NCBI GenBank assembly: GCA_016699105.1
Contig: CP064960.1
Coordinates: 8,727-72,726, forward strand
Source of the DNA: a bacterium
GTDB taxonomy: Bacteria > Patescibacteriota > Saccharimonadia > UBA4664
Length of the DNA: 64,000 bases
Reading direction: 5' to 3'
The translations under genes and the position numbers were made by a program. The notes beneath the pieces were generated by a model, which saw nothing but the letters and a program-made list of their open reading frames with translations, ran no database searches and was not told the DNA's origin. Shown piece after piece: positions 1-23,615 of the stretch; the first letter of the stretch is position 1, and each line of letters starts with the position of its first letter.

Positions 1-142
1 ATCATGAGGATTTCAAACTGATATGGCAAGGTGGCGAGGGCAGCCGCGAGTACTTGGTGAAGTTCTGGTAAGCCGGCTGCCTCATTGTGACACGGTACGA
101 TGATGGTGATGAGTGGCTGGCTGGCCATTGATACTGGCTTAC

Positions 143-1435: not shown

Positions 1436-1618
1436 TTAGGCTTATGAATGCTCAGTGGACTATTGTTATATTTGTCGGACAATGGTATAGTTTCGCCCAA
1501 GCCGCCGGATCTGTCCGGCAGGTTCGTTCATTGCAACATTGCATTCTTAGCTGTCGATCCCGAGGAGGCGGTCGTGCACCAAACAGTTGCCTCCCGCCAC
1601 CACTGGGCGCTGAGAATC

Positions 1619-2755
1619 ATGCTCATACTCGCTGACTTGCGACTCATTGGTTTTATTGAGATCACTTATCTATTCAAGCTGGGCTTCAAACCCAGCCAGA
1701 TCGGTCTGATTTCTGCCCTACCCCTCGCCACACATTTATTGGCCAACATTCCGGTAGGCTGGTGGAGCGACCGTTTTCATCGACACCGGCGCCTAGCCAT
1801 TACGGGCGGCCTCGGCTGTCTAACCATCTGTTTGGCCGGCTTCGGCTGGCTGTCTGATCCGGTTTTCTGGATGGCGGCCAGTTTGACAGCACTTCGCGGC
1901 GTCGGCTTCGCACTCTATTACAGCACAAGTGAAGCGTTTACTCTGCTGCACTATGGAGCATGGGAGAACTCAGCCGCCGAAGCCCAAATAGAACGATCCC
2001 GGTCGTGGGGCTATGCCATGACAATCCAGTGCATAGGCGTGGCCGGAATCTTCACCGTACTCACACTGGCACCCCAGACGGCCTTGCGCAAATTCTACTT
2101 CATCCAAGCAACTGCTCTGCTGATTGCCACAATGGCATCATTGCGTTTGCCTAAGTCCGTTACGTTGTCACGACGCAGCCATCAAAGCGCTTGGCACATG
2201 CTCCGTAATCTGGGTGATGGGTGGTGGTACGTCGGGTACTCGATAGCGACCCTAGCCTTTACCAACTGCATGGTGGCTATTACCCAGCTACAGTTGACTC
2301 TGCTAGGCCAGACACCACTTGATCTACTGCGTTTTTCAATTGGGTTTTACTGCGCCGCGGCCTTGGCTGCCTTCTATATACGCCCCATCGAACGCACGCT
2401 GGGCGCGGCTGGCGCGGTTGTCCTATCCACGATGCTATGCGTAGCTGTTGTCGCTTGGTTTGGTTTGGCTAGCCCGCATTTTGTTCAGTATGGTAGTTTT
2501 GTTTTTGGCCTGCTGTTCGGAATTCGAAATGGTATCGATAAAACCCGGATGATGCAACTGAGTCGTTGGCCAGCACTGTTGATGTCAATTCAGGTAGCGG
2601 CCTCTATGGGCCTAGCTAGTTTCATGATTGCAGTTAGTGGCCGCATCGCTGAGACTTATGGCATCCATTGGGTACTCGTGCTGGTGGCAATCACTATTGT
2701 CCTACCGGCCGTTTTATGCGGCTGGCACGCCCGGCATACTTCGAGAGGATGGTAA
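1619..2755 (+). CDS. MFS-type transporter
   Basis: Multi-TM ORF with MFS-like loop between TM2 and TM3 (GWWSDRFHRHRRLAITGGLG). ORF-track start at 1448 reads through a leader; first plausible ATG at 1619. Confidence 0.45.
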   Translation: MLILADLRLIGFIEITYLFKLGFKPSQIGLISALPLATHLLANIPVGWWSDRFHRHRRLAITGGLGCLTICLAGFGWLSDPVFWMAASLTALRGVGFALYYSTSEAFTLLHYGAWENSAAEAQIERSRSWGYAMTIQCIGVAGIFTVLTLAPQTALRKFYFIQATALLIATMASLRLPKSVTLSRRSHQSAWHMLRNLGDGWWYVGYSIATLAFTNCMVAITQLQLTLLGQTPLDLLRFSIGFYCAAALAAFYIRPIERTLGAAGAVVLSTMLCVAVVAWFGLASPHFVQYGSFVFGLLFGIRNGIDKTRMMQLSRWPALLMSIQVAASMGLASFMIAVSGRIAETYGIHWVLVLVAITIVLPAVLCGWHARHTSRGW

Positions 2756-2887
2756 CGATGGTGATCCCAGCTGTTATTCAAAACCCACTACCCGCAGGCG
2801 CTGGCTACTTGTCCGCCGCCAGCACGACTTGGCAACCATTTGCTGACCGCAATCGCTGTTTGAGATTCGCGAAACGAAGGGAACGTT

Positions 2888-3346
2888 ATGATGACAACGA
2901 CGTCTGGCGATTTGATGGTAACTGATACGGAACAGTATTTTCGAGGTGAAGAACGATCCTTTGCCGGTGCCAGCGTGCATCTAACTGTGACGCACTTTGA
3001 TCTATCGGCACTCGCTCGAGTCAAGCTGTATGCTCGATATGTCACCAATCCTGAGATGACGGCCTGCCTGGAAGCCCTCCAGCAGCTTGCTGCGTACGAT
3101 CTTGTCGTAGAAATGATCGAGTTTTATGCTCAGCATGTCGTCCCTCCCGAGATGACAGCCTGCCTGGAGGCCCTCCAGCAGCTTGCTGCGTACCATCATG
3201 CATCGGCAATGAAGAAACTCGAGAATACTCAGTCGTCATTCATCACGATGGCTGAGTCTGCCGCCCGGATTGACGCTGGCGAAATCAGTGTGGCTGAAGC
3301 TATGATCGCGTTTCACGCCGCCCGCATCTTTGCCGGTGCCGTCTGA
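2888..3346 (+). CDS. Hypothetical protein with internal 32-aa tandem duplication
   Basis: 152-aa ORF. 48-nt segment cctgagatgacggcctgcctgga...gctgcgtac at 3050-3097 repeated at 3146-3193 (PEMTACLEALQQLAAY twice, in frame). Confidence 0.35.
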   Translation: MMTTTSGDLMVTDTEQYFRGEERSFAGASVHLTVTHFDLSALARVKLYARYVTNPEMTACLEALQQLAAYDLVVEMIEFYAQHVVPPEMTACLEALQQLAAYHHASAMKKLENTQSSFITMAESAARIDAGEISVAEAMIAFHAARIFAGAV

Positions 3347-3374
3347 CACGCTCTAGCTTCCGTCGAAGTTCTCC

Positions 3375-3415
3375 GCCCCGTGGATTCTACCTCATATTGG
3401 TAGCGTCCACGGGGC
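3375..3415 (+). terminator. Stem-loop downstream of 2888..3346 (10-bp perfect stem gccccgtgga/tccacggggc, 21-nt loop)
   Basis: Perfect inverted repeat read directly; followed by ttctctattgctc (weak U tract). Confidence 0.4.
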
Positions 3416-3478
3416 TTCTCTATTGCTCAAATGGATGCAATATGGTATGTTAGGCGAGTCCTTGGCTCGAGTTTCGTC

Positions 3479-3580
3479 GCTTTTCGCTCACCTGCGAGGT
3501 CCCATACTTTGTATGTAATCTCTTGCCTCGAAAAGCTCAAATGCAAGCATTTGGCTTTTCGCTCACCTGCGAGGTCCCAT
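3479..3580 (+). repeat. 27-bp direct repeat (gcttttcgctcacctgcgaggtcccat) at 3479-3505 and 3554-3580; second copy is tRNA-Glu leader plus first 8 nt of the tRNA
   Basis: Exact duplicate read in sequence; 48-nt spacer. Confidence 0.8.
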
Positions 3581-3647
3581 CGTCTAACGGTTAGGACAAC
3601 GGATTTTCATTCCGTCAACCGGGGTTCGACTCCCCGTGGGACTACCA
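3573..3647 (+). tRNA. tRNA-Glu (anticodon TTC)
   Basis: Cloverleaf. Acceptor ggtccca/tgggact, D arm tcgtctaacggttaggac, anticodon stem acgga/tccgt with loop ttTTCat, T arm cgggg-ttcgact-ccccg, discriminator a, encoded CCA. Confidence 0.85.
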
Positions 3648-3724
3648 TTTGATCCTGATTCAAATTTGCTAACGCAAAGATGCCATTCACTCCTGGAAAC
3701 AGGGTGTTTTTGGTGTTCCACACT

Positions 3725-5303
3725 TTATTTCGTCAACGGTCGGCAATTGCTCGAAAATAAGGCTGAAAAGTTGGGCCTTTTGACCGGGTCTATCTGTTGG
3801 AGTATCACTTCATCCAGGTGTTCCACGAAATATTTAACCCTCCCCATTACCCGGCCAAATTCGCTGGGTTTTTCGGCTTCTTTCTTGGCCTTTTCGTCGG
3901 TCAATGCGGTGATTTGTTGTTCAATTCTCACAAGGTCTTCCTCCATAAATTTAAGTGCGGTTGGTGAATCCAGGATGCGAATTTTGGCGACGGTCGAGGC
4001 CGCGTCGGCTTTGAGCTGCGTGATGCGATCTTCGATGCCCTGAAGCTCTTGGAGCTGGCTTTGGTTACGCAGATGCCACTCGGCCGAGACCGCCGCCATA
4101 ACGGCGCCGAGGTGGTCAGTAGAGACCGTAAGATTGCGGGTGAAGGCCGCGATAGTGTCCTCAAGCTCTTGCTTGGGAATACGGTAGTAGTGACCGTGAT
4201 GACTGCAATGATAGGCCGGATATTGTTTGCCGGATTTGCCGCGCGACGAGCTAGCAGTGAGTGGATTCTTGCACTGCGGACAGAGCACGAACTTCTTAAA
4301 CGGAAATTCTGATGAGCGCGTACCTTTGTTGATGAGGTGCTCGGGCGGGCGCTTGGCGTGAACGGCGATTTCGCCGCTGGGGCTTTCGATGATAACGCGC
4401 TTGCCCCGGTTGGCGCGGTTGAATAGGTCGATGGAAACGAGGCCGTTAAACACACAACGAATCGGTTTGTTGTCGGTCCACTTTTCGGAGTTGATGCCGG
4501 CGTAAATCGGGTTGCGTAGGAGCTTGTGCATGGCCTTAACGGTGAGCTGTTTGCCGCCGCTGTTGGCGATTACCTTGGAACGGTCGTCTTCATCGCGGAC
4601 GACGAACCCTAGTACGGAAGCCCATGCCATTGAGTCTCTCAACAATCTCATCATCGTGGAGATTGCCTTTGGCATTGAGTTCGAACATCTGGATAACGAA
4701 TTTTGACTCAACCGGGTGGGGTTTGAGAATGCAGCGTTTGCCCTGCTTGGTTTCAACCTTTTCGCTCACATAACCAAAGGGCGGGCGACGCATCCAATAG
4801 CCCATTTGGGTGTAGCGAATTTCGGCGCCAATAATGCGACTCATTATGTCGCGGAGTTCGTCTTTGGCCCGCTCGGCTTCGAGGATTTCCGACTTCTTGC
4901 TCGGCGAGTATTTGCTCCACTTGTATTCAAAGCCCAGGTGGTCGAGTGTGTTTACCTCTTCCCCACTGATGACACCGTAAATATCCACGAGTTTTACTTT
5001 GCAGTGATCGAGCTGGGCCGTCAGCTCACCGTAGGCATGCGAGCCGCCGCGCGTGAAACGGTCGATGGACTTGATGATAAATAGCTGGATGTCGTTCTTG
5101 GGGTTTTTGCAGTAATCAATGGCGGGCTGAACCGGCTGCTGATCCTTTGATGCAGATTCTAGGAATACAAAGAATTGCTTGATGGAAATGCCCCGCGCGG
5201 CGGCGTAGCGTTCAATCTGCTCTTTTTGAGCTTCGGGAGAATCACCGTCCCGGCCCTGCTTTTCGGTCGAAACGCGAATGGCGGCAACGGCGTTCTTGCT
5301 CAT
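3725..5303 (-). CDS. Large serine recombinase (resolvase catalytic domain + recombinase domain + zinc ribbon / coiled coil), frameshifted around 4590-4756
   Basis: N-part AVAAIRVSTEKQ resolvase motif with catalytic Ser (ORF 4590..5477, likely start ATG 5303). C-part with CPQCKNPL...HCSHHGH zinc ribbon and coiled coil in ORF 3725..4756. Confidence 0.7.
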
Positions 5304-5517
5304 TGCTTCGCCCGTTCTTCGGTGATGATGTCGAGGATGATATTTGCTAGCAAGCTCACCCGCTCCTCGGCGGATAAGTTCAAGGCTGCCGATGGTTTCT
5401 CTTTGTTCGTTGCACCCTTCGTTCGCGCCACCCTCATGCCCTCGATTACATACCCAACCCAAAAGAAGCCTCAGCAAATATCTGCGAAGCCTAACACTCG
5501 GCTAAACGAACGAGCTG

Positions 5518-5724
5518 TTATTCCTTGGCTTTGGTCGGATTACCGGGCCGCGTGCGGCTCGCTAAATCCTTCTCGATAAGGACTTTCAGCTCAGGGTCGG
5601 TACCGGCCAGAAGTTGCAGCACAAACTCGGTAAGGCTCAAACCTTTACCATAGGCGACGGCCTTGGCGCGGTTGAGAACTTCGGTGCTGGCATTGATTTG
5701 GAATCGTGGTCGAACTGATGACAT
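5518..5724 (-). CDS. Small ribbon-helix-helix (CopG/Arc-like) DNA-binding protein
   Basis: 68 aa with RHH-like pattern; positioned next to the recombinase. Confidence 0.35.
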   Translation of the reverse strand: MSSVRPRFQINASTEVLNRAKAVAYGKGLSLTEFVLQLLAGTDPELKVLIEKDLASRTRPGNPTKAKE

Positions 5725-5909
5725 GCGGTTATTGTACTACGAGTACTACAATGCGGCGCTTTTTCGTGGTTTAGCCGAATTGTTAAGGCTCGTGTCTATC
5801 TGTATTTAATGTACTACTAATACTACATTAATGCAACACTAGCCTATGGATTGGAGTTTGGTATAGATACGTTTTTCGTGGTATCCCAGCATTCCGTAAG
5901 GATTTCTTT

Positions 5910-6242
5910 TTAGAAGGCATACTTATTCACGTCCACACAATTTGGTTCCTGCTGAAGTGCCATTGCAAACTGCCACTGCCCGTTTACCTTTGCGTAATAA
6001 TAACCGGCCCCGGTTTGGCAGCCCTGGCCGACCGCAGCGAATTGGTCGCGAATAACTTTTGAGATACTGAAAGAAGCGTCTGCCCCGGTAGCCGCGCATC
6101 CGGCATATACTTTGTCGTATTCACCCTTAATATAGGTCTGGAAGTCGGCGGGCGCAGATGAAAGACCCAAGATATGCTCGTACTTGTCCTCAGTCTGAGC
6201 CGCCGACAGCGTGAAACCGCCCCGCATCGTCAGTGCGCCCAC
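5910..6242 (-). CDS. Hypothetical protein, possibly C-terminal continuation of 6272..7177
   Basis: 110-aa ORF 30 nt downstream of the previous gene, same strand. Confidence 0.25.
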   Translation of the reverse strand: MGALTMRGGFTLSAAQTEDKYEHILGLSSAPADFQTYIKGEYDKVYAGCAATGADASFSISKVIRDQFAAVGQGCQTGAGYYYAKVNGQWQFAMALQQEPNCVDVNKYAF

Positions 6243-6271
6243 GGGCGTTCCGATTTGACCATATTTTGACT

Positions 6272-7177
6272 TTACAGCACCGTCTTTGAGTCAACGAAAT
6301 CAATCTCGAATTCGTGCTGGTATATAAGCGTCTGGCTGTCAAACTGAGCAACATATTCATCTGAGCTGAATGTTGGTACCGGAATTGTACTCGGCGCAAC
6401 ATTCTGGCCAATCTTGTCCCCAGGATATGAGAGGATATTCGCCTGGTTTGATGCCTGGTTGATGAAATAGAATGTGTTGCTCGACTGGCTGAAAGAGACG
6501 TAGCCAGATGATTGTACCAAGCCGGGTGCGGAAAACTCGGATAATGTTTTGACGTTACTGCCGTCGGCGTTCATTATCATCGGGTGTTCTGAAACGCCAT
6601 TGTTTTGGCCGGGTGTGTTTTGCGTGTACGCCCAATAAACAACACGCCCATCCGCGAGCTCGGCCGGGTGTTGGCTTTCGTTAGTTTTGGTGAGCTGAGC
6701 GAGAGTATCTGTTGCTAGTGTATAGCGGAAGATTTGTCGGTCGGGTGATTGGTACACCGGCTGAGGCATAATTATCGTCAAGAGAACACTCTTACCATCA
6801 TGAGACCAGGCGTTGCTCCCATCAGGCCATGAGGGGCCGTTTGCTGTAGCCCCGGTAGGCAGCTTAATCTCTTTTGTAACCTTAAGGTATTTATTCAATA
6901 TCCACAGCGAATTTTGCGTGTTGTCCTTACTCGCTACGGCAAGGAACTGGCTGCCGTCTGGGCTCGGAATCATTGTTTGGATTACTTTGCCATCGGTTGT
7001 TGGCAAGTCATATCGAACTCGGCTTCCAGCCTGATTGATACAGACGAGCTTTGAGAGCCGTACAAAGCAGTAATTAGGCGGGAACTGTTTACTGGCTTTT
7101 GACGCCAGTTGGGAACTCACATCAGATTGTTGAGGGCGCTGCTGAAGGTAGGTGGCGTAGCCGGCAACCGCGACCAT
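6272..7177 (-). CDS. Membrane-anchored beta-propeller protein (TolB/PD40-like repeats)
   Basis: N-terminal hydrophobic anchor; SPDGSQ..., WSHDGKS..., ADGRVVYW repeats reminiscent of PD40 blades. Confidence 0.35.
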   Translation of the reverse strand: MVAVAGYATYLQQRPQQSDVSSQLASKASKQFPPNYCFVRLSKLVCINQAGSRVRYDLPTTDGKVIQTMIPSPDGSQFLAVASKDNTQNSLWILNKYLKVTKEIKLPTGATANGPSWPDGSNAWSHDGKSVLLTIIMPQPVYQSPDRQIFRYTLATDTLAQLTKTNESQHPAELADGRVVYWAYTQNTPGQNNGVSEHPMIMNADGSNVKTLSEFSAPGLVQSSGYVSFSQSSNTFYFINQASNQANILSYPGDKIGQNVAPSTIPVPTFSSDEYVAQFDSQTLIYQHEFEIDFVDSKTVL

Positions 7178-7371
7178 AACAAGCGCGAGAATCGATGTTA
7201 GTACTAGAGTACGCCGCCTCGATCTATTTGGCTTAGGTGTTCATCTGACGCAATATGGCTAGTACTGCCGGTTAATTTATCGGCTTCGACAGTCTGTGAT
7301 GGTTTGTGTTCTTGTTTCATTTTGTAAGATTGTTGGTTTAATCTTAAGCGGATTTATGTTGATTGCAAAGC

Positions 7372-8336
7372 TTATTCGGCCCAACTCGTGACGTCGAAAT
7401 ACACATCATAATTACGGCCAGTTTTTGGATCACTAAATTCTTGGTAGTCATAGATGCGCGCGCCATGTGCCTCACGCGAGTCTAGGCCCGGCACGAGCCG
7501 ATTTTGCGACATTTCACTGATGCGGCTTATCATAAATTCCTTTTCCTGCTCGTCGTGCGTATGAATAGCACTTCTAACGTTGTTATGGGTAGTTAATAGC
7601 TCTTTCAGGCCCTCCTCAAGTAGACTGGCGATTTTGGCTTCGATATTTACTGCGATGGTCGAATGGCTGTGGGCTGCCACATGATTATTCCCGAAAGTCG
7701 CCTTTACCCGCTTTGAAACTCCAAAGTACCAGAGCCAGGCCAACCCCAAACAGTTGTGCGCCCGCCCTGGTCGTAACCAGAGCCTGTAAAGTTACTACCC
7801 AACGCCTGTTGTCCGAGTGAGTAATCTGTAACTCCAGCAATTGCCATCAATGCTAGATAGACCATGATGAACTGTGGTGTGCGCGGGTGTCGCTTATGAA
7901 TCATAACGATAGCGACAATTGTTAAAACCGCTTCAATGAACGAGGAGACCACATCGTAATTCCATAACCAAGTGATCCCGGCTGTATCGTAGGTATCGTA
8001 TTGAGTTAGCCTCGTAAATAAAACAAAAACGAGAATGGCGGCAGTGATATATAGACCTAGCACAAAGTAGGCTAACCAACCCTCTATGCCATTAAGCGAA
8101 GTTTTGTCGCCGCGCTTCTTATCGGTGAAAAATCGTAGTATTCCGATTGGTAACCAAATAATTCCAACTACACCGGCAATAAAAACAATGGTATTGCCAA
8201 TGGTCTGGCCCGCACCGCCCGTAGCCCCCCTGACGCAGTTGCGACGGCATTAATTATGGCAAAGCCAATAATTGCGCCAAGTAACAGGAGCAGTGGGAGC
8301 ACGATATGATCGCTACGTCGCCGAATGATTACTGGC
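7372..8336 (-). CDS. Integral membrane protein, split by about 2 frameshifts
   Basis: Three consecutive minus-strand pieces (8336-8226, 8063-7704, 7749-7372) read as one hydrophobic protein. One break at a C6 homopolymer (about 8222-8227). Confidence 0.4.
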
Positions 8337-8356
8337 ATATATTCCTGAGGGTTTCT

Positions 8357-8857
8357 TTAAGCTAAATATAGCTTACTTGTGGGGAAAGTAGCGATAGGCA
8401 GTCGGTTTTTGAATGAGCGCCGGGTCCCAACCCTTTTCTTTGGCGAGCTGTCTATCTCCTCGAATTGCTCAAGATGAAACTTCAGCGCGGCTTCTCGATA
8501 AAAATCTATTCTTGGTTTGAAGTATTTATACAACCTCTGGGCACGCTCCATGTGCTGAGTCGCGCCGTCATCCCAAACATAATATAAATCTTCAGCAGCT
8601 TCGTTTGTGAGTGGGTATCCAAATTCGTCCTTCTGATGCCCGTCATGGGTTATCGGTCCCCAATCAGGCATTTCAGGAACGACTGGAGCCGGACGTTTCA
8701 AAGTAGTAATGACGCCGACTTCAACAAATGGAATATCAGTTTCGGTCTCATACGGCACAAGGTCGAAGCAGCGATACTCGCCCTTCATGTCCCATTCATC
8801 GACGCCGATAGCGACGAGGCTGCGCTGAGAGAGTAGATAATCTGATTGGATTAGCAT
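8357..8857 (-). CDS. Hypothetical protein
   Basis: 166-aa ORF, no motif recognised. Confidence 0.3.
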   Translation of the reverse strand: MLIQSDYLLSQRSLVAIGVDEWDMKGEYRCFDLVPYETETDIPFVEVGVITTLKRPAPVVPEMPDWGPITHDGHQKDEFGYPLTNEAAEDLYYVWDDGATQHMERAQRLYKYFKPRIDFYREAALKFHLEQFEEIDSSPKKRVGTRRSFKNRLPIATFPTSKLYLA

Positions 8858-9033
8858 CGAGATTCATCCCGTTATTGTTTAGCGCCGTCACGCTGTTTTG
8901 ATATTGCTGTCGGGAGATTGATAATCGGCTGGAGTTCGAACGGTCGGTGTGGTCCAAATCGGCAAACTGAATTTTGCGGAGCTTTGTCATCACACCCTCT
9001 TCCCCCCTATCACGCCGTCGAGGAAGATAAACG

Positions 9034-9477
9034 CTAGGCCCATGTATCGGCTCTGCTCCTCGGCCTTGTACCCTTCATAAAGACGACCAGATCGAGATAG
9101 CCATCCTCAACGGGTCTTGAGCTGAAATACACATCCGATGCCGCCATTTCGAGGCCTTCATACTGTGCTGTCTCAATTTCAATAGCCGGCTTAAACGCGG
9201 TTATTTTCCAGCCCGGTATTTTTGGGGCAACGGCAACAATGGCGTGCACCCGTGGCATATCTCTTCTGACGCCGTCGCACGAAATGAATAGCTCGCGCTT
9301 GTTGTCCTCAAATGGGCCAATCAAGAAGCTCAGAAGTGGGTCGGTCTTTCCGAGTTGTTTTGCTAGTTGGCTAACAAGCTTATCTTGATTGGTTTCGAGT
9401 CGAAGATATTCCTTGAATGCTCGCTGAACCATTTCCAGAAATCTGCGTAGGATAATTTTTTTCGAGAATATGCCCAT
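9034..9477 (-). CDS. Hypothetical protein
   Basis: 147-aa ORF, no motif recognised. Confidence 0.3.
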   Translation of the reverse strand: MGIFSKKIILRRFLEMVQRAFKEYLRLETNQDKLVSQLAKQLGKTDPLLSFLIGPFEDNKRELFISCDGVRRDMPRVHAIVAVAPKIPGWKITAFKPAIEIETAQYEGLEMAASDVYFSSRPVEDGYLDLVVFMKGTRPRSRADTWA

Positions 9478-9776
9478 TTGATATCAGTATACGGTATCCG
9501 GTACGAAGTAGATGAACGAATAATAAGTTATTCGCCGCTAATAAACTTAATTGATTATTTTATATCTGTTGAATGTATTTTTGTTTCCTCTTTTACTATA
9601 TAAATATAGAGAAGAAATACTATACCTTGTGACCCCTATGAACTACCCCCTACTACACTTTCTAACTCCTAAACTAACTCCACCTCTATGCCTGAACCAC
9701 ATTACCGAAAACATTAAATGAAGACCAGCTAGAAGTACTCAAACGCTTACGTGATTTTCGATTTGGAACCAGTGAT

Positions 9777-10507
9777 TTGATTGCTCAGTTATTTGGTAAG
9801 TCGAGTGGCGTATTTGTTTTTAAGCGATTGAAGATTTTGCGAGAACGCGGATTGATCGGACAGCGGTTTGATAGTAGCTATCGCATCAAGGGCAAACCTG
9901 CGGCCTACTACCTCTTACCAGCTGGGGCGCGGGCGCTCCAGGATCACTACGACGCTACCGGCCTCGACGTCAAAGTAAACGTAAAGAGCATCTACAAGGA
10001 TGGGTCGGTTTCAGAAACATTTATCGAGCATTGCCTGGATATCTTTGCCGTATTCAATTTGCTGAAATCCCGGCACGGCAAGCGGGTGAAGTTCTTTCAA
10101 AAGCGAAACTCGCGTACTATGACTATCTCCCCGACCCGCTACCCGACGCGTATCTGAGGTTTAAGGTCGAAGAAGACGAAAAACAATTCTTTATTGAGGT
10201 CTTGCATGACGCCCAGTTGTTCTTTGCGGCTGTGCGCCGGATTAAGCACCTCTTGTCCTACGAGGAGGGTGGGGATTGGTCGTCCACCAATACAGCAATT
10301 CCGTCGGTTTTGCTCATCTGTGATAGCGCCAAGTTGCAGCGGCAAATTCACAAGAAGACTTCGCGCATGATTGGCGAGGCGGATGAGATGTATTTTTATA
10401 CCACCACGATGGACGAGTTACGGCAGTTGAAGCGTGGCAAGAAGGATGTGATTTGGCGGGACGTGACCGATCCGGAGGACGCGATGGCGTTGAGTGATTT
10501 GGAATAA
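9777..10507 (+). CDS. Replication-relaxation family-like wHTH protein (plasmid-type), frameshift near 10031-10157
   Basis: N-terminus ...EVLKRLRDFRFGTSDLIAQLFG resembles the replication-relaxation wHTH. Two overlapping frames (9777..10157 and 10031..10507); AT-rich upstream region 9480-9780. Confidence 0.35.
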
Positions 10508-10979
10508 GGGGCTCCGCTCGGGCGCGACTAACTTGCTGCGCTATCCCACCTGCTAGTAATTTGGTCGTAGATCCTTTCGGCTTCACCATCTTTGTCGTCA
10601 CTGACATGTACAAGATACCGAGCAGCCCATAAGCATCTGGGTATTTTGCCACTCGCCTCATGGCAGATATCGCCTCTGAAACAGAAAGGTCCTCACCCTT
10701 AATGAGTCGAGTGGATACCTCCGAGGCTAATTGCTTGGTCGGGTGGTTGAGTTTATCCAGACATACCGTTAGAAGTTCAATTCGCGCACTTTCGCTAACT
10801 TGCTTCTGGACATTCGTTGGCAGATAACAGAGTTCGTACATTATCGCGAAAACAGAATTATTAGAAAACGCCGCCGCTTTTGCAATTAATTCGTGTGCTC
10901 GGGTCTCATCGTTGTACGGGAAGTTTGCGTCGATTTCATCTAGAAATTCGAGCTCCTTGGTTGAGATATCGGCGCTCAT
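10314..10979 (-). CDS. Hypothetical protein (C-terminal about 60 aa is probably read-through)
   Basis: 221-aa ORF; low-complexity tail overlaps the 3' end of the convergent plus-strand gene. Confidence 0.25.
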   Translation of the reverse strand: MSADISTKELEFLDEIDANFPYNDETRAHELIAKAAAFSNNSVFAIMYELCYLPTNVQKQVSESARIELLTVCLDKLNHPTKQLASEVSTRLIKGEDLSVSEAISAMRRVAKYPDAYGLLGILYMSVTTKMVKPKGSTTKLLAGGIAQQVSRARAEPLIPNHSTPSRPPDRSRPAKSHPSCHASTAVTRPSWWYKNTSHPPRQSCAKSSCEFAAATWRYHR

Positions 10980-11219
10980 GACTCGGTTGTACCATCGACA
11001 TTACCGCTTATCTCAAAGGTAAATCCTCGTCCAGCATCGGCATGATCTTGAGTGACAAACTTTCTCGCCGCAACGTAGTCATCGTGCAGATCGGCTGCAT
11101 TCGGCTCAAAATTGATCGAATCAATCGAGAGCAGCTTATTTACGATATTCACGCCCCAAAGGGTCAGTCCTTTGATTCGGCCCAATCCAGTACCTCAACC
11201 GCAGTTTTGGGGTCAAATA

Positions 11220-11799
11220 TCAATGCCCCGTGAGAGATTTCTCCGAGCGCTCGTGTAAAGAATTCCTCCGGATTGGAGCGTCCTCATCATCCGGGGATAC
11301 ATAAAGGTCAATATCAATTGTCGATCCAAGACGGGAAATTCGTTTGACTTCGTCCGCTTCAAACCAAATGCCGGGCGACCAATCACGGCACCAATAGTAG
11401 TAGCCTACCTGGGTCGGATATTTAGCGGACAACTTAGCGATTTCAGCCTCGTGTGGTTCGAGGATCGATAGAAGGTTCTGGAGATGCACTTCAGGTCTCT
11501 CGGTTTCGGGAAGAGCCGATTCAAGCAACCAGAAGTTTTCTTTGATTTTGTATTTTGGGCGTCGGACGGGATCGGGCACATCGTTTTCTTCCGACCTTGG
11601 TCGGGGTTATGCCAATGATTTTAGTAATTTCGTCTGGGTCGACGTCAAACTCGTACACGCCAAAACTGAGGCGCGTTTCGTCTTTGGTGTTAATACCGGC
11701 TCGACGGTGGCTTGAATCGTTTGAGGGTTTTGTCATTGTGGGAATATTAGCATGATTAACCTTTATTCTGTTGTTAAGTTGCCGCACGCGGCGATTCAT
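11220..11799 (-). CDS. DUF4279 domain protein, frameshifted around 11521-11579
   Basis: LSFGVYEFDVDPDEITKIIGITPTKVGRK...YYYWCRDWSPGIWFEADEVKRISRLGSTIDIDLYV matches the DUF4279 signature (D.PDEIT...PT, C-terminal IDIDLY). Confidence 0.5.
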
Positions 11800-11888
11800 A
11801 CTTTCCTAAATCATCAAAAATAAACGGCTATGGATGATTGCGCCGTAATTAACACCACGAGCGGCACCAGGGGGAGTGATGACCCACT

Positions 11889-12515
11889 TTAACGATACCA
11901 CCCGGCTCTTTCGTTATCTTCAGCGGAGTAGAATATGCTTTCAACACTCTCATTATTCATCCTTGCAGTGATCATTGCCTTAATATCGTCATCGGTCAAA
12001 ACGATGATCATCCAATGGGGCGGATATAGATGCCAATGCCGTATAGCGTTGATAGCCTGGCTGCTTGGGAGTTGGCGTGTCAGGATTACCCTGAAAAGCC
12101 CATGCTCGGGTATCTCGTAGTCTTTAGCCTGGAGAACCTCAGAGTTGCCTATCGGTTTGGCGTCACTATAGTTTTTACATTCAAACACGATTGTATGCGT
12201 AGTGTATTTAGATTGAGACTGGCCCAATAATTACTTGTCGGGTTTGTTCTAGGCCTGTTTTTGACAAGAATATCCATACGTTGATGCCTATCCCAAGTGG
12301 TAGCTTGCTGCTCTAGATTGAACGCCTCAAAGCATTCGTCTAAACAGTACTTTAGAATTTCGGCACATATATCTTCGTATTGCCTCCACCCCGCAAAGCC
12401 CTTTTGGCAACCGTCGAGTTTACTAATTAACTCTGTCCCCCTTGAGGTGATGAGTTGGGACTTTTTAGCCTCAGGCGAAAAGGGATCAGATTGGCCTAGC
12501 TGTGAATCTTTACAA
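11889..12515 (-). CDS. Mrr-cat-like restriction endonuclease domain protein, frameshift near 12230; no start codon identified
   Basis: ...QRMDILVKNRP and TIVFECKNY resemble the Mrr catalytic core (D...(Q/E)CK.Y). Reading frame continues upstream of the annotated ORF in a second frame. Confidence 0.35.
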
Positions 12516-12743
12516 CTGAAATTGGCTCAGATTTAGGCTTCACTTGCGTAAGCCTCCATCATCGCGAGCGCCTCATCGAGTGAGCCCTGCCTAGCTGCTT
12601 CAAGTGCATTCACTTTTCTCAGGCTCTCAAGACGTGGCTCAAAACCAGTTGGCGCCTTCGACTTTTCTGCCAGATCGCTTATACCAAGCTTCAAGTTTAT
12701 CTAGGGCCAGGAAGTTTTTGCTTTTGCCAATCGCTCAAAGTAC

Positions 12744-13082
12744 TCATAGGCCAGGGACCAGATGTACGATGAATAGTTTAGATACTCGCCCCTGATCTTT
12801 TCTCAATAAATCTAGCGACACATCTAAAAGTTTGATGAATTCTTGAATATAGCGTTCATTGAGTCGTGTTAATGGTCGACCGAACTCCTTGTCGTGCAGT
12901 TCGTGCTCCAGAGGACCGACCTCATGCATCCCCATTTCCTCAACATGTGGAGCGGCACGTTCTTTTATCTGCTCAAAGCGCCAAATAGCGGCGTCCCTAT
13001 CGCTGAACAGCACAATTAATACTTCGTTCGCTGCGACGGCTAGCGGAGAGTATTTTGGGTCGCCGTCGTGCTGCCGGAACAA
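12744..13082 (-). CDS. Hypothetical protein
   Basis: 112-aa ORF. Confidence 0.3.
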   Translation of the reverse strand: MFRQHDGDPKYSPLAVAANEVLIVLFSDRDAAIWRFEQIKERAAPHVEEMGMHEVGPLEHELHDKEFGRPLTRLNERYIQEFIKLLDVSLDLLRKDQGRVSKLFIVHLVPGL

Positions 13083-13098
13083 TTTACGAAAATAACGT

Positions 13099-13476
13099 TT
13101 ATATTGTGTATCGCTGCGTTATCAGCTTAGACATCGCCCGTAAAGATGACTCTCGCTCATACACGCTGAATTTAATGTCTTCGACAAATGACTTCAGGAC
13201 TGGTATCGCAGTAGTTAAGATAGTGCCGGCCTTCAGGCATTCCTCGATCATATGGACATACGAATTCGGCATGTAGTATCTGGTATCATGGCGCTTATCC
13301 AGGTACCGTTTATTCAGCTCCACTATGTCCGACAACTCGATCTTGCCAAGCAAATCAAATAATAGCTTGCGATCGTCGTCATAGGCGAAGGGGATAAAAT
13401 TGATTAGATTTTGTTCATATTTTGTGCGGACAGTCTCCGCACCAACCAGCTCAACCGCACTCGCAGAGCGTCGCAA
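13099..13476 (-). CDS. Hypothetical protein
   Basis: 125-aa ORF. Confidence 0.3.
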   Translation of the reverse strand: MRRSASAVELVGAETVRTKYEQNLINFIPFAYDDDRKLLFDLLGKIELSDIVELNKRYLDKRHDTRYYMPNSYVHMIEECLKAGTILTTAIPVLKSFVEDIKFSVYERESSLRAMSKLITQRYTI

Positions 13477-13584
13477 TAATAGTGAGCATATTGGGTGATT
13501 GTGTAGTTGGTAGTAGAGCTTGACTCGTCACGGCTATTAATTCGACCTTGATTTCCTTAGGGTCCATCCTATCTAGCACCACCT

Positions 13585-14074
13585 CTACGGCAAGATGCTT
13601 GAGTCTCTCAACGTCCCTCTCGGTGATTTTGCCCGCCAGAGTATCCTTATCATGGATATATGTTCGAAATACTGTTGGAATATACTGATCTTTTCGGGCT
13701 CAAGGGCAATTCTAAAATTGTCATACAGATCATTTGCTCTTTGGCTATTTCTTTGCATGAGCCTGCAATGCGGCAGAGTTATCACTGATTATCCTGCGCT
13801 TTATTGCGTCATCTCGTATTGATTCTGCATCCTCCTGTACCAGTAAACTTATTAAGTTCTTAGCACTCGCCTCATCTGTTCGAGACTTATACCTTTCGTA
13901 TATCTCCAGATAATTATTGAGTGAAATTGTCTTGGATAATAACTTGGATAATGAGTATATATTCTCTTTGTCTTCGAGAGCTTCATATACTTCTTGCTGC
14001 ATACGTTGTTTCGTTTGAAAGAACATATTCAACAAGCTTATCGGTGAAATATGACCGCTCCGCATAGTATCCAT
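13585..14074 (-). CDS. Hypothetical protein (two overlapping frames, probably one gene)
   Basis: ORFs 13745..14074 and 13585..13785 overlap on the same strand. Confidence 0.25.
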
Positions 14075-14213
14075 GACTCTCTCCGTAGGCTCTCAGAATA
14101 AACGCTTTTACGGGCTCCAGTAGTCGTTTAGGATTTTGAGACTTTAATACATTTAGGATTTTGTCGTCCTGATGGCGCTCTCTGTCATTAAAGATGGATT
14201 CCCATCGAGAAAT

Positions 14214-15485
14214 TTATGAACATAGGCATCTTTTTGACCCCAAAATGGAGAAGAAGTTGCGGAGACCTGTCTCTGTTGTGATCTCATAGAAGCCATATCT
14301 CGCATATATTTCGCACCCCATGAGTAGTCCATCGGCCAAGTATTGAATGGTCTTTTTTGAATTAGGGGCAACTTCATAGCAGAAAATTAGGAATGCTTCG
14401 TGTACTAGTTTGTCGGGATGTTTGCTAGCAGGGGTGAGCCTATCAATATCCTTGCTCCTGTTGAACTTCCTAAGAGCACGCAAGGAACGACGCTGAAGCA
14501 CGCCGTTGTCCGATGAGTCGTTTGCGAACTGAATTAATAATTCGTGCCAGTAGTCATCCGGAGTGTCCAGCAACGAAGGGTTTACGGAAAGTATTTCATC
14601 TAAGATGCCGACGGCATTACCCATTTCAACGATGCGCTCCGTTTCGGTACCGCTGCCCTTGAGCAAGTCCTTATTCAATACGGAGATTTCGTTACTAGTC
14701 GCGAACCGAGAAAGGATATGTTCGGCTCCGTCCGGCAGCCAAATCTGCTTATCTTTGTAGAGTTTATATAGGAAAATGAAAAATTTATGCTTTTCATTTT
14801 CGTCTAAGATATCTTCCAGCCCCGCTAAGGCGATTGAATTAAGAAGATCTTCAACGACGACAGAGGGATTTCTCCGCAAGAGGCGCGCGAACCAACCACA
14901 GAGCCCAACATGCTGCGGGAATTGCAGTAGCAAACCGAGTACTTCATACCAATTCGGTGCAATTGCAATTTTCTTGCCATTTCGAGCAAAAATCGTCTCT
15001 AACAATGTTGGTGGACTGGCAACCTCAGCGATGTATAGGGCGGAGTAAAAAGAGTGAACCGAGGGATGGTAAAAAGTTACCAATTCTGATTCAAGAGACA
15101 ATATCCTTAACTCAATTAGATGCTCAATATCACCATGATCGAGAAAGCGTTCTGTTTCGGACAGAGAAAGGCTCACTACTTGCATGAGCTCCATCGCGAA
15201 TGCGAAGCGGCTCAATACGGTGCTAACGGCTTTATTGCCTACTAGCTGCTCATCGAGGTAAATAAAGAATCCTGCGCGACTAAACTTGACGATATTCCGA
15301 CTACTGACATAATCGCCGACCAGAGAAAGAAAATATCTATCTGATAATAAGCTGTGGAATAGGCTCGCTCTCCAAAATTGCCTGACGATTTCTTCGGGCA
15401 AGTTGGAGTTCTCGCCGGGTAGCCGGCCCCTTAGATAAATGGCCTGGTCTTGAGAGGACACTTCATTGTTATTGAAACTACTCAT
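14214..15485 (-). CDS. Hypothetical 423-aa alpha-helical protein, third gene of PLD-nuclease operon
   Basis: Large ORF with start overlapping the upstream 72-aa gene (ATGA-type coupling); no known motif recognised. Confidence 0.4.
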   Translation of the reverse strand: MSSFNNNEVSSQDQAIYLRGRLPGENSNLPEEIVRQFWRASLFHSLLSDRYFLSLVGDYVSSRNIVKFSRAGFFIYLDEQLVGNKAVSTVLSRFAFAMELMQVVSLSLSETERFLDHGDIEHLIELRILSLESELVTFYHPSVHSFYSALYIAEVASPPTLLETIFARNGKKIAIAPNWYEVLGLLLQFPQHVGLCGWFARLLRRNPSVVVEDLLNSIALAGLEDILDENEKHKFFIFLYKLYKDKQIWLPDGAEHILSRFATSNEISVLNKDLLKGSGTETERIVEMGNAVGILDEILSVNPSLLDTPDDYWHELLIQFANDSSDNGVLQRRSLRALRKFNRSKDIDRLTPASKHPDKLVHEAFLIFCYEVAPNSKKTIQYLADGLLMGCEIYARYGFYEITTETGLRNFFSILGSKRCLCS

Positions 15486-15700
15486 ATCTCCATTCCTCCG
15501 CGTTTGCCTGAGATGGCCATGTAAAGTTCATCCAGTATTTCAGGATTTGTATGAGCAATCCTTTTGTAACTCGCCTTCAAATATTCAAGCATCTCAACCG
15601 CAAACTCCCGGTTGGCATTCTCGGGGTGGAAGATGCGCAGGTAGTTTACCGTGGCCTCAACGTCTTTTTCGGTGATTTGGTAGTCGCTCATATCTTGCAT
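15482..15700 (-). CDS. Hypothetical 72-aa protein, middle gene of PLD-nuclease operon
   Basis: Small ORF 8 nt downstream of the PLD gene, overlapping the next gene. Confidence 0.35.
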   Translation of the reverse strand: MQDMSDYQITEKDVEATVNYLRIFHPENANREFAVEMLEYLKASYKRIAHTNPEILDELYMAISGKRGGMEI

Positions 15701-15707
15701 GATTGTA

Positions 15708-16205
15708 TCACCAAGTCCATTTCTTCAGACCGGCAAATTGGATCATCTGTCCGCACAGTTCTTCGGACTGGGTGCGGCGCATGACTTCGCGGCTGTTATT
15801 TTGGCTCAGGATGTTCAGACTCCCCTCCCACAAGATTTCGCCGTCGATGGCGGCCAGCTTGCGGTGTCGCAGATCGTCGCATGTATTCACCTTCACGCCT
15901 GCGGCCCGGAGCTGCTTGAGCGCCACCCAGGCTTGGATGCGCAGGTACTCGTCGTGGTGGTTGGGGTTGCGGGTATTGATACGCACCTTCACGCCGTGGC
16001 GGGTGAGCTTTGCCAGTACCGGCAGCAGTTGGTTTGTGCGCCGGGTGGTGAGATATGGGCTTTCGATGATGACTTCGCGTTTGGCGCGTTTGAGATCATT
16101 GATGAACGCGCCGTAAAACCGGCGCTCATCGTAGAGCTTTGACGTGAGGATGGCGGCCGGGTTGGGTTGACGGCGGAAGATGCTAAACATGCTCCACCTC
16201 CCCAT
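15708..16205 (-). CDS. Phospholipase D-family (HKD) endonuclease, Nuc/BfiI-like single-HKD protein
   Basis: HRKLAAIDGEILWEGSLNILSQNNS contains H-x-K-x4-D plus the GS.N tail of the PLD nuclease motif; 165 aa. Confidence 0.6.
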   Translation of the reverse strand: MGRWSMFSIFRRQPNPAAILTSKLYDERRFYGAFINDLKRAKREVIIESPYLTTRRTNQLLPVLAKLTRHGVKVRINTRNPNHHDEYLRIQAWVALKQLRAAGVKVNTCDDLRHRKLAAIDGEILWEGSLNILSQNNSREVMRRTQSEELCGQMIQFAGLKKWTW

Positions 16206-16285
16206 CGCCGACGCCGAGCTCTTCGAGCCGAGTGCTGAGTTGTACCAAACTAGGCCACAATGTGTTCCACATGCGTCCCGTTTGG

Positions 16286-16334
16286 CCTACCAAAGAAAAA
16301 CCCTCACGATATGTGGGGGTTTTTCTTTGGTAGG
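16286..16334. terminator. 18-bp perfect inverted repeat hairpin (cctaccaaagaaaaaccc / gggtttttctttggtagg)
   Basis: Read directly; lies between the island boundary and core genes. Confidence 0.45.
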
Positions 16335-16485
16335 TGTTCACGCGGGGAGGAGAACTGTATGGTTCGGTGGATGAGGAGCGCAGGGAACGGACAAGTTCAC
16401 TTGGACGATTTCCGAGCACCACAAGGAGGTGGCGTTAGCCACACTCCGTATGGGACTACCAGGAGTTATTGAAAATGATATGTTG

Positions 16486-17577
16486 CTAGCGATCGCTTGA
16501 CTGGATAATCTGGGGCGAGTCGCTTGAGCAGAACCCGATGCAATCGTTACTGGACATTGTTTGGATATATTGGCGCAGGTTGTCTTGCAGACTTGGTGTA
16601 GCGACGAACAGGGTGAGGACGGCACTGACGGCAATAGTAACAATTGTGACAGCCAAGACACCAACCCACGAGCGCGGCTGAGCTGGTTTACTTCGGGAGT
16701 AGCGATAGGTATCGGAAGCAATAAACAACGCTGGCACGGCTAGTACGATATAGACAGCCGCAATCATGGCGCCGAGTATCCAGGGCTGAATGGTCGGCTG
16801 GAACTGAATGCCAAAAATCAGGCCGGTGGCGATGAGCGACAGGCCACCCGATACGGCAACGGCAGTCAGCACCATGAGCCCTAGAACTGCCATAGCAGCA
16901 ATCACGCCGGCCGTTCCCCTGAGCAGCTGGCGCAGGGCGGCGCCGGCGGCGCTAAACGCCGGGCGGTTTTCTTCAACTACGTGCTCCCAGTGCTCTTTGT
17001 TGGCTACTTCGGCGTATTTTTTGCGCGCTTGGCCGATGAGCTCTTGGGAGTTGAACGACTCGCCACGCGCAGCCGCCTTTTTCTTCGGGGTTTTGGCGGT
17101 GGGAGCAACCATCATCACCACAATGTAGCCAGCAGCCGCAGCTCCACTCGTAATAAAGAGGAGGCCGAGCATCAAGAGCCGGACGATTGTGACATCAGCA
17201 TTAAAGTAGGCTGCCAGGCCCGTGCATACACCGCCAACCATTGATTGATCTTTGATGAGAAAGAACCGCTTGGGCGGCCGCGGGGTGTCTTTGCTGGCTT
17301 TGGTTTTGGTATCGGCATCATCCGGTTCAGCCACTGGCCCCATGTCGTGCAGCAAGGCTGTAACCTCCTTGTCGAGCACCACATTTTTGGTTCCACTGAT
17401 GGTTGATTCGCATTTGTCAGCTAGGGCTTGTTCCAAATCGGCCAGAATTTCTTCACGGTCTGGGTCTGCTTTCAATCGGGCATGGGCATCGACGAGGTAA
17501 TCGTTAAGCTGATTGTAGCCATGTTCTTCCAACTGGAACGCCCGGCCATGTAAGTTGATAGTGATTACCTTGTTCAC
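16486..17577 (-). CDS. PspC-domain membrane protein with N-terminal HAAS-like domain (PadR partner)
   Basis: MVGGVCTGLAAYFNADVTIVRLLMLGLLFITSG matches the PspC domain. N-terminal EEILADLEQALADK is HAAS-like. GTG start overlapping the PadR stop (GTGA) with an aggagg RBS. Confidence 0.55.
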   Translation of the reverse strand: MNKVITINLHGRAFQLEEHGYNQLNDYLVDAHARLKADPDREEILADLEQALADKCESTISGTKNVVLDKEVTALLHDMGPVAEPDDADTKTKASKDTPRPPKRFFLIKDQSMVGGVCTGLAAYFNADVTIVRLLMLGLLFITSGAAAAGYIVVMMVAPTAKTPKKKAAARGESFNSQELIGQARKKYAEVANKEHWEHVVEENRPAFSAAGAALRQLLRGTAGVIAAMAVLGLMVLTAVAVSGGLSLIATGLIFGIQFQPTIQPWILGAMIAAVYIVLAVPALFIASDTYRYSRSKPAQPRSWVGVLAVTIVTIAVSAVLTLFVATPSLQDNLRQYIQTMSSNDCIGFCSSDSPQIIQSSDR

Positions 17578-18022: not shown

Positions 18023-18460
18023 CTAGGCAGTTTTCGGAGCGACAGGATTAATGCCCAGCTTTGTTTGAATCATATCAAGCACTTCACGCGGGGTGTAATC
18101 GGCTTTGACGAGATAATCGGCGCCATAACTTTGGGCAGTTTTGCGGTCTTCGGGATTGGATGAATTGGTGAGCACCATGACCGGCATGGTCGAGAAATCA
18201 AAGTTGTCACCAGCAAGGGCGCTTAAGAGTTCGAGACCAGTAAGTTCGGGCATGTTGATATCAAGCAACAACAAACTTGGGGCATTTAGTTTAACAGCTT
18301 CGTAGGCATCCCGGCCATTGGCTTTGACGATGACACGTAAACCAGCGCTTTCGAGTTTGATTTGGTACATTCTCGAAATAAACGGATCGTCTTCGGCTAC
18401 CAAGACTACCTTTCGGTCATCGACTGGTGCGGCGGGTACGGGATTTGCTTGTATGGCCAT
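18023..18460 (-). CDS. Single-domain response regulator (CheY-like receiver)
   Basis: VLVAEDDPF...LLLLDINMPELTGLELL...YLVKADYTPREV; likely start ATG 18460 with aggagg RBS. Confidence 0.75.
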   Translation of the reverse strand: MAIQANPVPAAPVDDRKVVLVAEDDPFISRMYQIKLESAGLRVIVKANGRDAYEAVKLNAPSLLLLDINMPELTGLELLSALAGDNFDFSTMPVMVLTNSSNPEDRKTAQSYGADYLVKADYTPREVLDMIQTKLGINPVAPKTA

Positions 18461-20595: not shown

Positions 20596-20607
20596 ATTGT
20601 TATTGTA

Positions 20608-21345: not shown

Positions 21346-21371
21346 GTTCTTAGAAGCTTTTTATTACTTAT

Positions 21372-22037: not shown

Positions 22038-22314
22038 CATTATATCTTGCGATTTTAAGTAACTTTTAGTACACTTTTCTTGACTGGACTAAATTATTGT
22101 TGTATTTCAAGAATTCTGAACTCACTAAAACCTATAAAGTCGCTCTCAATACCGTACTTAATTGGATTAAGGCGGCTCAAAACGGCAAGCTTGATATAGA
22201 GCTCGTAAAAAAAGGCGAGCGTTTTTCATTGCCAATACGGCGCGAAATATTAATGCTCTCAATGATTTAGCAATTAGTCGTAAGAAATATCGCAATAGCC
22301 GTACGGCGCGTCGA

Positions 22315-23328: not shown

Positions 23329-23615
23329 TACTGTCTCGAATATTTCTCTATACATCGTAACTACAGCCAGAGATTCTGAAGCAATTTAGTGTTGCATGTG
23401 CGTACAAAAAGTCATATGATGAATAAAGAAAGTTCATCATTTGCCAAAACTGTCACACTAATCTAACAAAGGATTAATTTTCATGGCACTGTAAATCAAT
23501 ACCAACTACCCTTTTTAAAAGGACTGATATACTTGCTTGTTACGCGGGACGCCAGCTTTTTGGCACCGCGTTTTATATTGCCACTTGCATCTGGCGCAAG
23601 TGGAGACGTACACTC

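Follow-up and report, generated by a model that had tools for sequence, protein, structure and literature searches.

An integrative island at the 3' end of a tRNA-Glu gene and its probable large serine recombinase in a Saccharimonadales-type bacterium

In this study, we analysed a stretch of 64,000 nucleotides of bacterial DNA (hereafter the window; GenBank assembly GCA_016699105.1, contig CP064960.1, positions 8,727 to 72,726), and found that its segment 3648-16292 is very likely an integrative element (12,645 bp) that belongs to a Saccharimonadales-type (Saccharibacteria) bacterium and was inserted at the 3' CTACCA of a transfer RNA (tRNA) gene, tRNA-Glu(UUC), by its own large serine recombinase. 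The insertion lies precisely at the terminal 6 nt of the tRNA, the recombinase gene abuts it, and the same geometry is present across the recombinase family. An earlier note, made from the letters of the window alone, had described a decayed island at this tRNA gene that was driven by a large serine recombinase, ended before a PadR/PspC module and was bounded by an 18-mer copy of the tRNA 3' end. The island and the serine-recombinase mechanism are supported by the analysis reported here, the proposed border repeat is unsupported and the claim of decay is uncertain.

It is well known that tyrosine integrases classically insert at tRNA genes, and that serine integrases use short sites and need no host factors. 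In the Islander paper of 2015, serine integrases were not known to target tRNA genes (PMC4383910). The TIGER paper of 2020 predicted 14 of 297 serine integrases at tRNA or transfer-messenger RNA (tmRNA) genes, which had been unreported before and for which experimental proof was stated to be required (PMC7192596).

Occupied and empty states of the target site

An empty tRNA-Glu site in related genomes and a shift in guanine-plus-cytosine (GC) content had been named in the earlier note as checks of the island, and both were found. Empty-site contigs were identified by exact look-up of the PadR protein in samples other than that of the window; they comprise three Logan runs and one ENA assembly (L101-L104) and are 98.6-99.3% identical to the window in both flanks. 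In these contigs, the tRNA-Glu end ...GGGACTACCA joins AAGAAAAACCCTCAC... (window 16293 onward) without any insert (BLAST), so that the empty site reads tRNA-Glu ...CCCCGTGGGACTACCA, then AAGAAAAACCCTCAC-TTTAT-GTGGGGGTTTTTCTTTGGTAGG..., and continues through the 18-mer to genes for PspC, PadR, a response regulator and a kinase. The BLAST blocks between the window and these contigs stop at 3647 and restart at 16277, with an overlap of 15 nt, and therefore the insertion corresponds to 3648-16292. Thus, both junctions (3647/3648 and 16292/16293) are precise with respect to nearly identical genomes that lack the element.

The occupied state was also observed independently. One contig (L100) spans the occupied distal junction and is 100% identical to 15321-16571, and three others (L011-L013) reproduce the interior of the island (4912-9519), which implies that this state is not an assembly artefact. 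Moreover, the two states occur together in a single ENA assembly, ERZ23795167, on an island contig with a coverage of 3.5 and an empty-site contig with a coverage of 17.2, suggesting that the island is polymorphic. The GC content is slightly lower in the island (0.481; cargo genes, 0.472) than in the left flank (0.527) and the right flank (0.507).

The recombinase gene

Two overlapping minus-strand open reading frames (ORFs) are located beside the tRNA. One of them carries a Resolvase catalytic domain (PF00239, E=2.4e-9, 37.9 bits with a cutoff of 23.3), and the other shows a zinc-ribbon match just under threshold (Zn_ribbon_recom, 24.1 bits with a cutoff of 25.3); PF07508 was not detected in the frameshifted pieces of the window. 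Intact homologues at 60-79% identity have precomputed matches to PF07508 and PF13408 as well as PF00239, and their CxxC...HC zinc-ribbon residues are invariant. The AAIRVSTEKQ motif is present in the window, and its nucleophilic serine is invariant in an alignment of 16 sequences. The family also shares a conserved C-terminal extension of approximately 60 amino acids (aa), which reaches the att site.

Translation and comparison with homologues revealed three frameshifts, each in a short homopolymer: one C too many at approximately 4597-4598, and one base too few in 3778-3781 (A) and in 3702-3704 (C). The earlier note was thus right about a frameshifted large serine recombinase adjoining tRNA-Glu, and had missed two of the frameshifts. 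Once the frame is corrected, the gene runs antisense through the 3' half of the tRNA, ends with ...QDQMVVPRGVEPRLTE and stops at a TGA codon (3607-3609) in the anticodon loop, which is the complement of tRNA positions 35-37. Exact look-ups returned no record for the frameshifted recombinase fragment, the 407-aa PspC ORF or the 423-aa cargo ORF, and a sequence search with the intact relative P0001 gave no match in PDB at E<=1e-3.

Recombinase family and its association with tRNA genes

A database search identified 1,551 relatives of the recombinase at E<=1e-10, and the best 120 were examined. Most of these 120 are approximately 570 aa in length, the closest being 79% identical to the window protein. 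In the alignment of 16 sequences, nearly all members end with ...SLMV(T/V)(P/S)RGIEPRLPG, the sequence that results when tRNA-Glu is translated antisense. When the contexts of three relatives were looked up, seven loci were obtained, and in all seven the recombinase ORF overlaps a convergent tRNA-Glu gene. A metagenome scan added 80 further loci, eight of which were on contigs too short to judge; at least 64 of the 72 assessable loci show the same overlap with a convergent tRNA. The tRNAs at these 64 loci were Glu (35), Gln (16), Arg (3), Val (3), Leu (2), Trp (2), Lys (2) and Tyr (1). The single Tyr call, at L094, came from a stop-codon script; in this locus ARAGORN places tRNA-Asn at the end of the ORF and tRNA-Tyr just beyond it. 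In 31 of the 35 tRNA-Glu loci, the overlap measures exactly 41 nt and places TGA in the anticodon loop. Of the eight loci that the frame rule scored as lacking a tRNA, at least three do have an adjacent one according to ARAGORN.

Distal repeats were searched for in 70 related loci. They are clear in L045, where the tRNA-Glu end is repeated perfectly over 18 nt at a site 7.9 kb upstream, beside a host terminator, and in L061, which has a 9-nt copy of the tRNA end beside a terminator; a third case is possibly L090. In the remaining loci, either the element extends beyond the 10-kb flank or the core is too short for detection. What these repeats have in common in the window, in L045 and in L061 is the last five or six bases of the tRNA. 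The relative P0115, which occupies a non-tRNA site, diverges from the rest of the family straight after SLMV, and therefore the border between element and host lies at the same codon there. Apparently, then, this is a large, uncharacterised recombinase family that is nearly always located against a tRNA 3' end.

Some further features of the family were noticed. In the P0115 branch (L014-L019), the 3' end of the L019 gene overlaps a 72-aa SPOUT_MTase (RlmH-like) fragment, which recalls the target of SCCmec. Short inverted repeats are present in many of the loci L020-L099, approximately 15-32 nt before the tRNA end and inside the recombinase gene; their sequence varies and their pairing is kept (for example TTTGCG-CT-CGCAAA, CTTTCA-N5-TGAAAG and TCCAGC-TC-GCTGGA; in the window, TTTGC-GTTA-GCAAA at 3665-3678). 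They could represent a protein-binding site or an RNA hairpin. Only one relative of the recombinase, a distant one (35% identity), was found in IMG/VR. No description of the recombinase family in Saccharibacteria or Patescibacteria was found in the literature searched, the coverage of which is incomplete.

Proposed mechanism of integration

We propose that the recombinase would join attP, composed of the distal end of the element and the 3' end of the recombinase gene, to the tRNA end (attB) by site-specific recombination. The right arm of attP would lie inside the 3' end of the recombinase gene, and its left arm, now the distal repeat, would be a loose imitation of the acceptor and T-stem of the tRNA, which the enzyme might also read in attB. 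The crossover would be a 2-bp exchange somewhere in CTACCA. Because it would take place at the very end of the tRNA, within its last 6 nt, the tRNA should remain intact and be wholly or almost wholly host-derived.

In the integrated state, the recombinase frame would run antisense through the 3' half of the tRNA as far as the anticodon loop. In the excised circle, the frame would instead enter the distal end of the element and acquire a different and longer tail, ...QDQMVGQTGRMWNTLWPSLVQLSTRLEELGVGDGEVEHV, as read from the sequence. The conserved module of the family comprises, besides the tRNA and the recombinase, a 45-aa ORF coupled to the latter and a Replic_Relax-like gene in divergent orientation, which probably serves circle maintenance or mobilisation. 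The rest of the element is cargo, for the most part without known function, and includes a PLD-nuclease-like cluster.

A broader proposition can be drawn up from the family, namely that serine integrases of this type form a large and uncharacterised clade, found mainly in Saccharibacteria-like hosts and specialised for tRNA 3' ends (Glu, Gln, Arg, Leu, Val, Trp and Lys). An attP arm would lie inside the integrase gene, so that on integration the host tRNA would supply the last 12-13 codons of the enzyme and its stop codon, and the tail would be switched between the integrated and the excised state. We put it forward tentatively, and in this full form we consider it rather unlikely.

Alternative explanations

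According to the earlier note, the island would occupy 3648-16461 and the 18-mer at its end would be the attR direct repeat generated by this integration. The likeness on which this was based is real: 15 of the 18 positions agree with the tRNA-Glu 3' end, among them all of the last 11, and nothing else in the window apart from the tRNA itself resembles that end as closely (16/20 when 20 positions are compared). The 18-mer is separated from the PspC stop codon by 25 nt, and the match exceeds chance by far, the expectation per shuffled window being approximately 0.03 for an 18-mer with no more than three mismatches and approximately 0.01 for an exact 11-mer. However, all four empty-site contigs have the 18-mer, together with the 168 nt before it, directly after the tRNA. 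Therefore, the 18-mer predates, or is independent of, this insertion and is not a border of this island, and we regard the longer island as highly improbable. The segment could also be ancestral, with the genomes that appear empty having lost 12.6 kb by ordinary deletion and without site-specific recombination; a comparison of two states gives no direction of the event, and the interval after tRNA-Glu is also variable in L003, a relative described below. On the other hand, both breakpoints fall on the last 6 nt of the tRNA and on the codon at which the whole recombinase family abuts tRNAs, the GC content of the cargo is lower than that of the flanks, and a loss at these points would equal precise excision by the same recombinase, that is, the same mechanism. 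Ordinary deletion is thus quite improbable in our view. Finally, tRNA targets are typical of tyrosine integrases (PMC4383910; PMC7192596), as would be expected if the locus were a prophage or a classical tyrosine-integrase island in which the serine recombinase is a passenger. This we consider extremely improbable: among the island ORFs tested, there was no tyrosine integrase (Phage_integrase domain in Pfam) and no match to phage structural genes (PHROGs, 10 island proteins), so that the structural or packaging genes of a prophage were not seen; IMG/VR holds just the one distant relative; and the junction between recombinase and tRNA is conserved across the family.

Integration by the resident recombinase remains our preferred explanation, and whether the element is decayed, as the earlier note had stated, is a separate question. 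Genes of the island are indeed broken in the window, but decay of the whole element is doubtful, because the 492-aa cargo gene and the 322-aa DUF2569 gene are intact in independent assemblies. Both are intact in L011, from which the window differs by 14 run-length indels in 6279-9456 and one substitution event, an unnatural ratio that would fit consensus errors in the source assembly, the element itself being intact and active in nature. The same is suggested by the three recombinase frameshifts, all of which are in short homopolymers, and by a histidine kinase gene outside the island (18417-20317), which is split into three ORFs in the window and is unbroken, with 727 aa, in those independent assemblies that extend across it. 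Nevertheless, the lesions are patchy, with no indels in 1-3527 (compared with L001), 4924-6143 and 15321-16571, one gap in 2793-3647 (compared with L101) and one in 20.3-27.6 kb. Furthermore, the region of the kinase that encodes its N-terminal sensor (19514-20317) has approximately 10 window-specific indels, and the lesions of this gene include non-homopolymer indels of 2-4 nt and clustered substitutions. The GT>TA change at 5911-5912, which creates a stop codon where L011, L012 and L013 all have GT, is not of the run-length type either. The lesions are therefore specific to this sequence and patchy, and both real lineage-specific decay and local consensus error are possible; we consider a wholly artefactual origin slightly less probable than its opposite.

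Several observations weigh against integration by the resident recombinase. The window has no intact frame such as an active enzyme would need, the three frameshifts being defined relative to the family, and their positions are covered by no independent assembly; as written, this copy would be unable to move, because the recombinase and several cargo genes are frameshifted. The activity of the enzyme is itself a prediction from its sequence. When the attP and attB sites inferred for the window, L045 and L061 were scanned for dyad symmetry, no consistent axis emerged, and nothing convincing was seen around the core; hence no central dinucleotide is assignable, and the architecture of the sites is a proposal. 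The 24-mer of the attP junction expected in an excised circle is absent from IMG/VR, the database searched for it. In addition, L003 lacks PadR/PspC and has a homologue of a cargo gene without a recombinase, which implies that the history of the locus is more complicated than a single insertion.

L003 is a Saccharimonadales metagenome-assembled genome. It was the single relative obtained by scanning the contigs of a genome collection with the MFS protein encoded upstream of the island (72% identity), and is the sole species-level relative in that collection, with a core approximately 75% identical to the window. It has tRNA-Glu at the same place, followed by genes for YCII, a class II aminoacyl-tRNA-synthetase-like protein and a methyltransferase, before the response regulator and the kinase, and its locus contains no recombinase, no second copy of the tRNA end and no PadR/PspC, and does not represent an empty site. 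Its 521-aa ORF (15717-17223), which has no family match, is 89% identical in DNA to window 5844-7349 (the 492-aa cargo gene), a value above that of the flanking core, which suggests a recent horizontal exchange of this gene. Therefore, the region that follows tRNA-Glu is a hotspot of variable content, and one cargo gene at least is mobile between lineages.

Features of the island and its borders

The coordinates of the features discussed here are summarised in Table 1.

Table 1. Features of the tRNA-Glu locus in the window
Feature	Position	Strand	Evidence or remark
tRNA-Glu (UUC), integration target	3573..3647	+	ARAGORN; same sequence in empty-site contigs L101-L103
attL core CTACCA, sole stretch identical at both junctions, presumed site of the crossover	3642..3647	+	Window compared with empty site L101
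Large serine recombinase gene	3607..5303	-	Start ATG at 5303; catalytic RVST motif; 79% identical to intact 569-aa P0001
45-aa ORF, overlaps recombinase start by ATGA	5300..5437	-	Homologous 41-57-aa ORFs at the same position in L004, L005, L008, L010 and L014
68-aa ORF	5518..5724	-	No family match; exact sequence in three other assemblies
Cargo block: broken 492-aa gene, broken 322-aa DUF2569 membrane protein gene, ORFs of 161, 91 and 95 aa	5844..9519	-	Compared with L011
Replic_Relax-like winged-helix gene, split in two	9696..10504	+	Pfam PF13814 E=2.8e-4, weak matches at 9777-10507; jackhmmer E=2e-50 and 8e-40
Further cargo: 221-aa ORF, split DUF4279 gene (11220-11799), 112-aa ORF, several ORFs without matches	10314..14074	-	Pfam, PADLOC
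Three-gene cluster: 423-aa ORF (one sub-threshold HEAT-repeat match), 72-aa ORF, 165-aa PLDc_2 nuclease-like protein	14214..16205	-	PLDc_2 at 15708-16205
Distal repeat GCGTCCCGTTTGGCCTACCA (attR, element-derived arm)	16273..16292	+	14/20 compared with tRNA 3' end; core CTACCA at 16287-16292; island ends at 16292
Terminator-like hairpin, GC stem between A-run and T-run	16286..16334		22-nt arms, 95% complementary; directly after tRNA-Glu in the empty site
18-mer CTCCGTATGGGACTACCA, copy of tRNA 3' end in host DNA	16444..16461	+	In occupied and empty genomes; 169 nt past tRNA end in empty genomes

The true border lies 169 bp upstream of the 18-mer, at a weaker repeat that is perfect over CTACCA only. 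Among the CTACCA-anchored sites of the window, this distal copy barely exceeds the background maximum of 13/20, so the true distal repeat was not pickable from sequence alone. As to the 18-mer, an earlier integration may have left it as a scar. The contigs L105, L106 and L108, all from other samples, break off exactly at 16451-16463, and in L108 the G at 16462 is replaced by A, which hints at a third arrangement or at such a scar. When attP was rebuilt with the 18-mer, an 8-bp inverted match between GCGTTAGC (16432-16439) and GCTAACGC (3668-3675), centred on the CCA end, was observed; this candidate was dropped once the empty site had shifted the border, and it is kept as a post hoc hint about the 18-mer only. 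The hairpin that had been placed just inside the island exists, but it straddles the true junction and is host sequence except for its first 7 nt. A BLAST search with 16293-16485 and the distal 190 nt of the element gave no match in any of the collected loci.

The 45-aa ORF possibly encodes an accessory or directionality factor, a role that we infer only. As to the Replic_Relax-like gene of the conserved module, 67 of 93 related loci have a homologue, which with few exceptions is divergent from the recombinase and lies no more than approximately 1.2 kb from it. In the window, this gene, which the earlier note had recognised as a replication-relaxation-like winged helix-turn-helix protein, is also divergent, but lies approximately 4.4 kb from the recombinase with cargo between the two. 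The DUF4279 and PLD-nuclease genes listed in that note are present as well. By contrast, two of its assignments found no match in Pfam, NCBIfam or PHROGs: a ribbon-helix-helix protein (the 68-aa ORF) and an Mrr-cat-like nuclease (the 221-aa ORF).

At the domain level, the PLD protein is akin to MkoC (1.9e-12), MkoB, DpdK and DrmC, and the 112-aa ORF matches the C-terminal part of the defence candidate PDC-M36A (PADLOC). These are domain-level matches only, and no complete known defence system was recognised by PADLOC, PHROGs or NCBIfam. With regard to mobilisation, the Replic_Relax-like gene is the only candidate in the window, where no relaxase was identified, and the relative L008 has a TraG/TrwB-like protein with weak matches. 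Relatives carry, among their cargo, a type I restriction-modification system, a SMODS protein and a TraG-like protein; therefore, the family moves variable and often defence-type cargo.

To the right of the island, from 16486 onward, PspC, PadR, a response regulator and a histidine kinase are encoded (Pfam). A second stretch of low GC content (0.39-0.47), with acyltransferase and methyltransferase genes, is located at 19000-24000; it is not part of the island because it is also present in the empty-site contigs. To the left, a perfect 27-nt direct repeat (3479-3505 and 3554-3580) spans the leader and the first 8 nt of tRNA-Glu, its copies being 75 nt, or one tRNA length, apart. Since a similar upstream 'ggtcccatactttgtatg' occurs in L003, this repeat is old and unrelated to the island, and it may be the remnant of a tandem tRNA. 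Just upstream of tRNA-Glu, a 152-aa ORF contains an 84-nt internal repeat (3021-3104 and 3117-3200, 82% identical), and the ORF at this place in L003 is shorter (119 aa).

Significance and comparison with known systems

Taken as a single locus, the island is an ordinary genomic island, whereas the pattern at the level of the family is uncommon and appears uncharacterised, with serine integrases located at tRNA 3' ends and the tRNA supplying the end of their reading frame. A clean pair of occupied and empty sites, together with at least 64 further loci in a fixed tRNA-abutting geometry, provides a defined and testable attB/attP pair. A family aimed at nearly universal tRNA ends could help to engineer bacteria that are hard to manipulate, such as Saccharibacteria. 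If it is true that the switch of the tail, or convergent transcription of the tRNA through the integrase gene, controls direction or expression, this would be a new coupling of integrase regulation to the integration state. There are also lessons for annotation: the best-looking repeat of a tRNA end may not be the border of an island, and apparent pseudogenes may be specific to one assembly.

The closest described system, likened by its layout, is that of the Dehalococcoides ssrA islands with their recombinase DsiB (McMurdie et al., 2011, PMC3146451). As in those islands, the serine recombinase gene (DsiB, approximately 540 aa) lies beside attL on the reverse strand relative to the tRNA-like gene, the attL repeat is inside the integrase gene, a short repeat of the 3' end of the target is found at the far border, and the cargo is variable. 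Further downstream repeats are shared too, and in the DsiB islands they result from tandem accretion (PMC3146451). The target of DsiB, however, is the tmRNA gene (ssrA), with insertion in the T-loop and a 20-bp repeat, whereas here it is the terminal CTACCA of tRNA-Glu, with a perfect repeat of 6 bp. DsiB is also accompanied by the small serine recombinase DsiA, ParB and Mom, in place of which the present element has the 45-aa ORF and the Replic_Relax-like gene.

A likeness to SCCmec and its Ccr recombinases had been drawn in the earlier note. In its layout, the analogy holds loosely, as both have a large serine recombinase, an island at the 3' end of a conserved housekeeping gene and short imperfect direct repeats. 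In sequence, the relative P0001 scores only 23 bits with the NCBIfam CcrB model, the cutoff of which is 900. Moreover, SCCmec targets rlmH and not tRNA-Glu, and Ccr is usually a ccrA/ccrB pair inside the element.

Islander-type islands of tyrosine integrases resemble the present one in that the integrase gene adjoins the tRNA, a copy of the tRNA end is found at the far border and the tRNA remains functional (PMC4383910). They differ in the family of the recombinase and in the position of the crossover, which here is at the extreme 3' end, with no real tRNA fragment displaced, and their perfect repeats are usually tens of bp long compared with 6 bp here. With the serine integrases of phages (phiC31, Bxb1 and A118), the recombinase, as judged by its intact homologues, shares the Resolvase domain, the recombinase domain and the zinc ribbon, as well as a minimal core common to attP and attB. 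Unlike these, it was not found with phage genes, has a conserved C-terminal extension that runs up to the att site and is aimed at the end of a tRNA.

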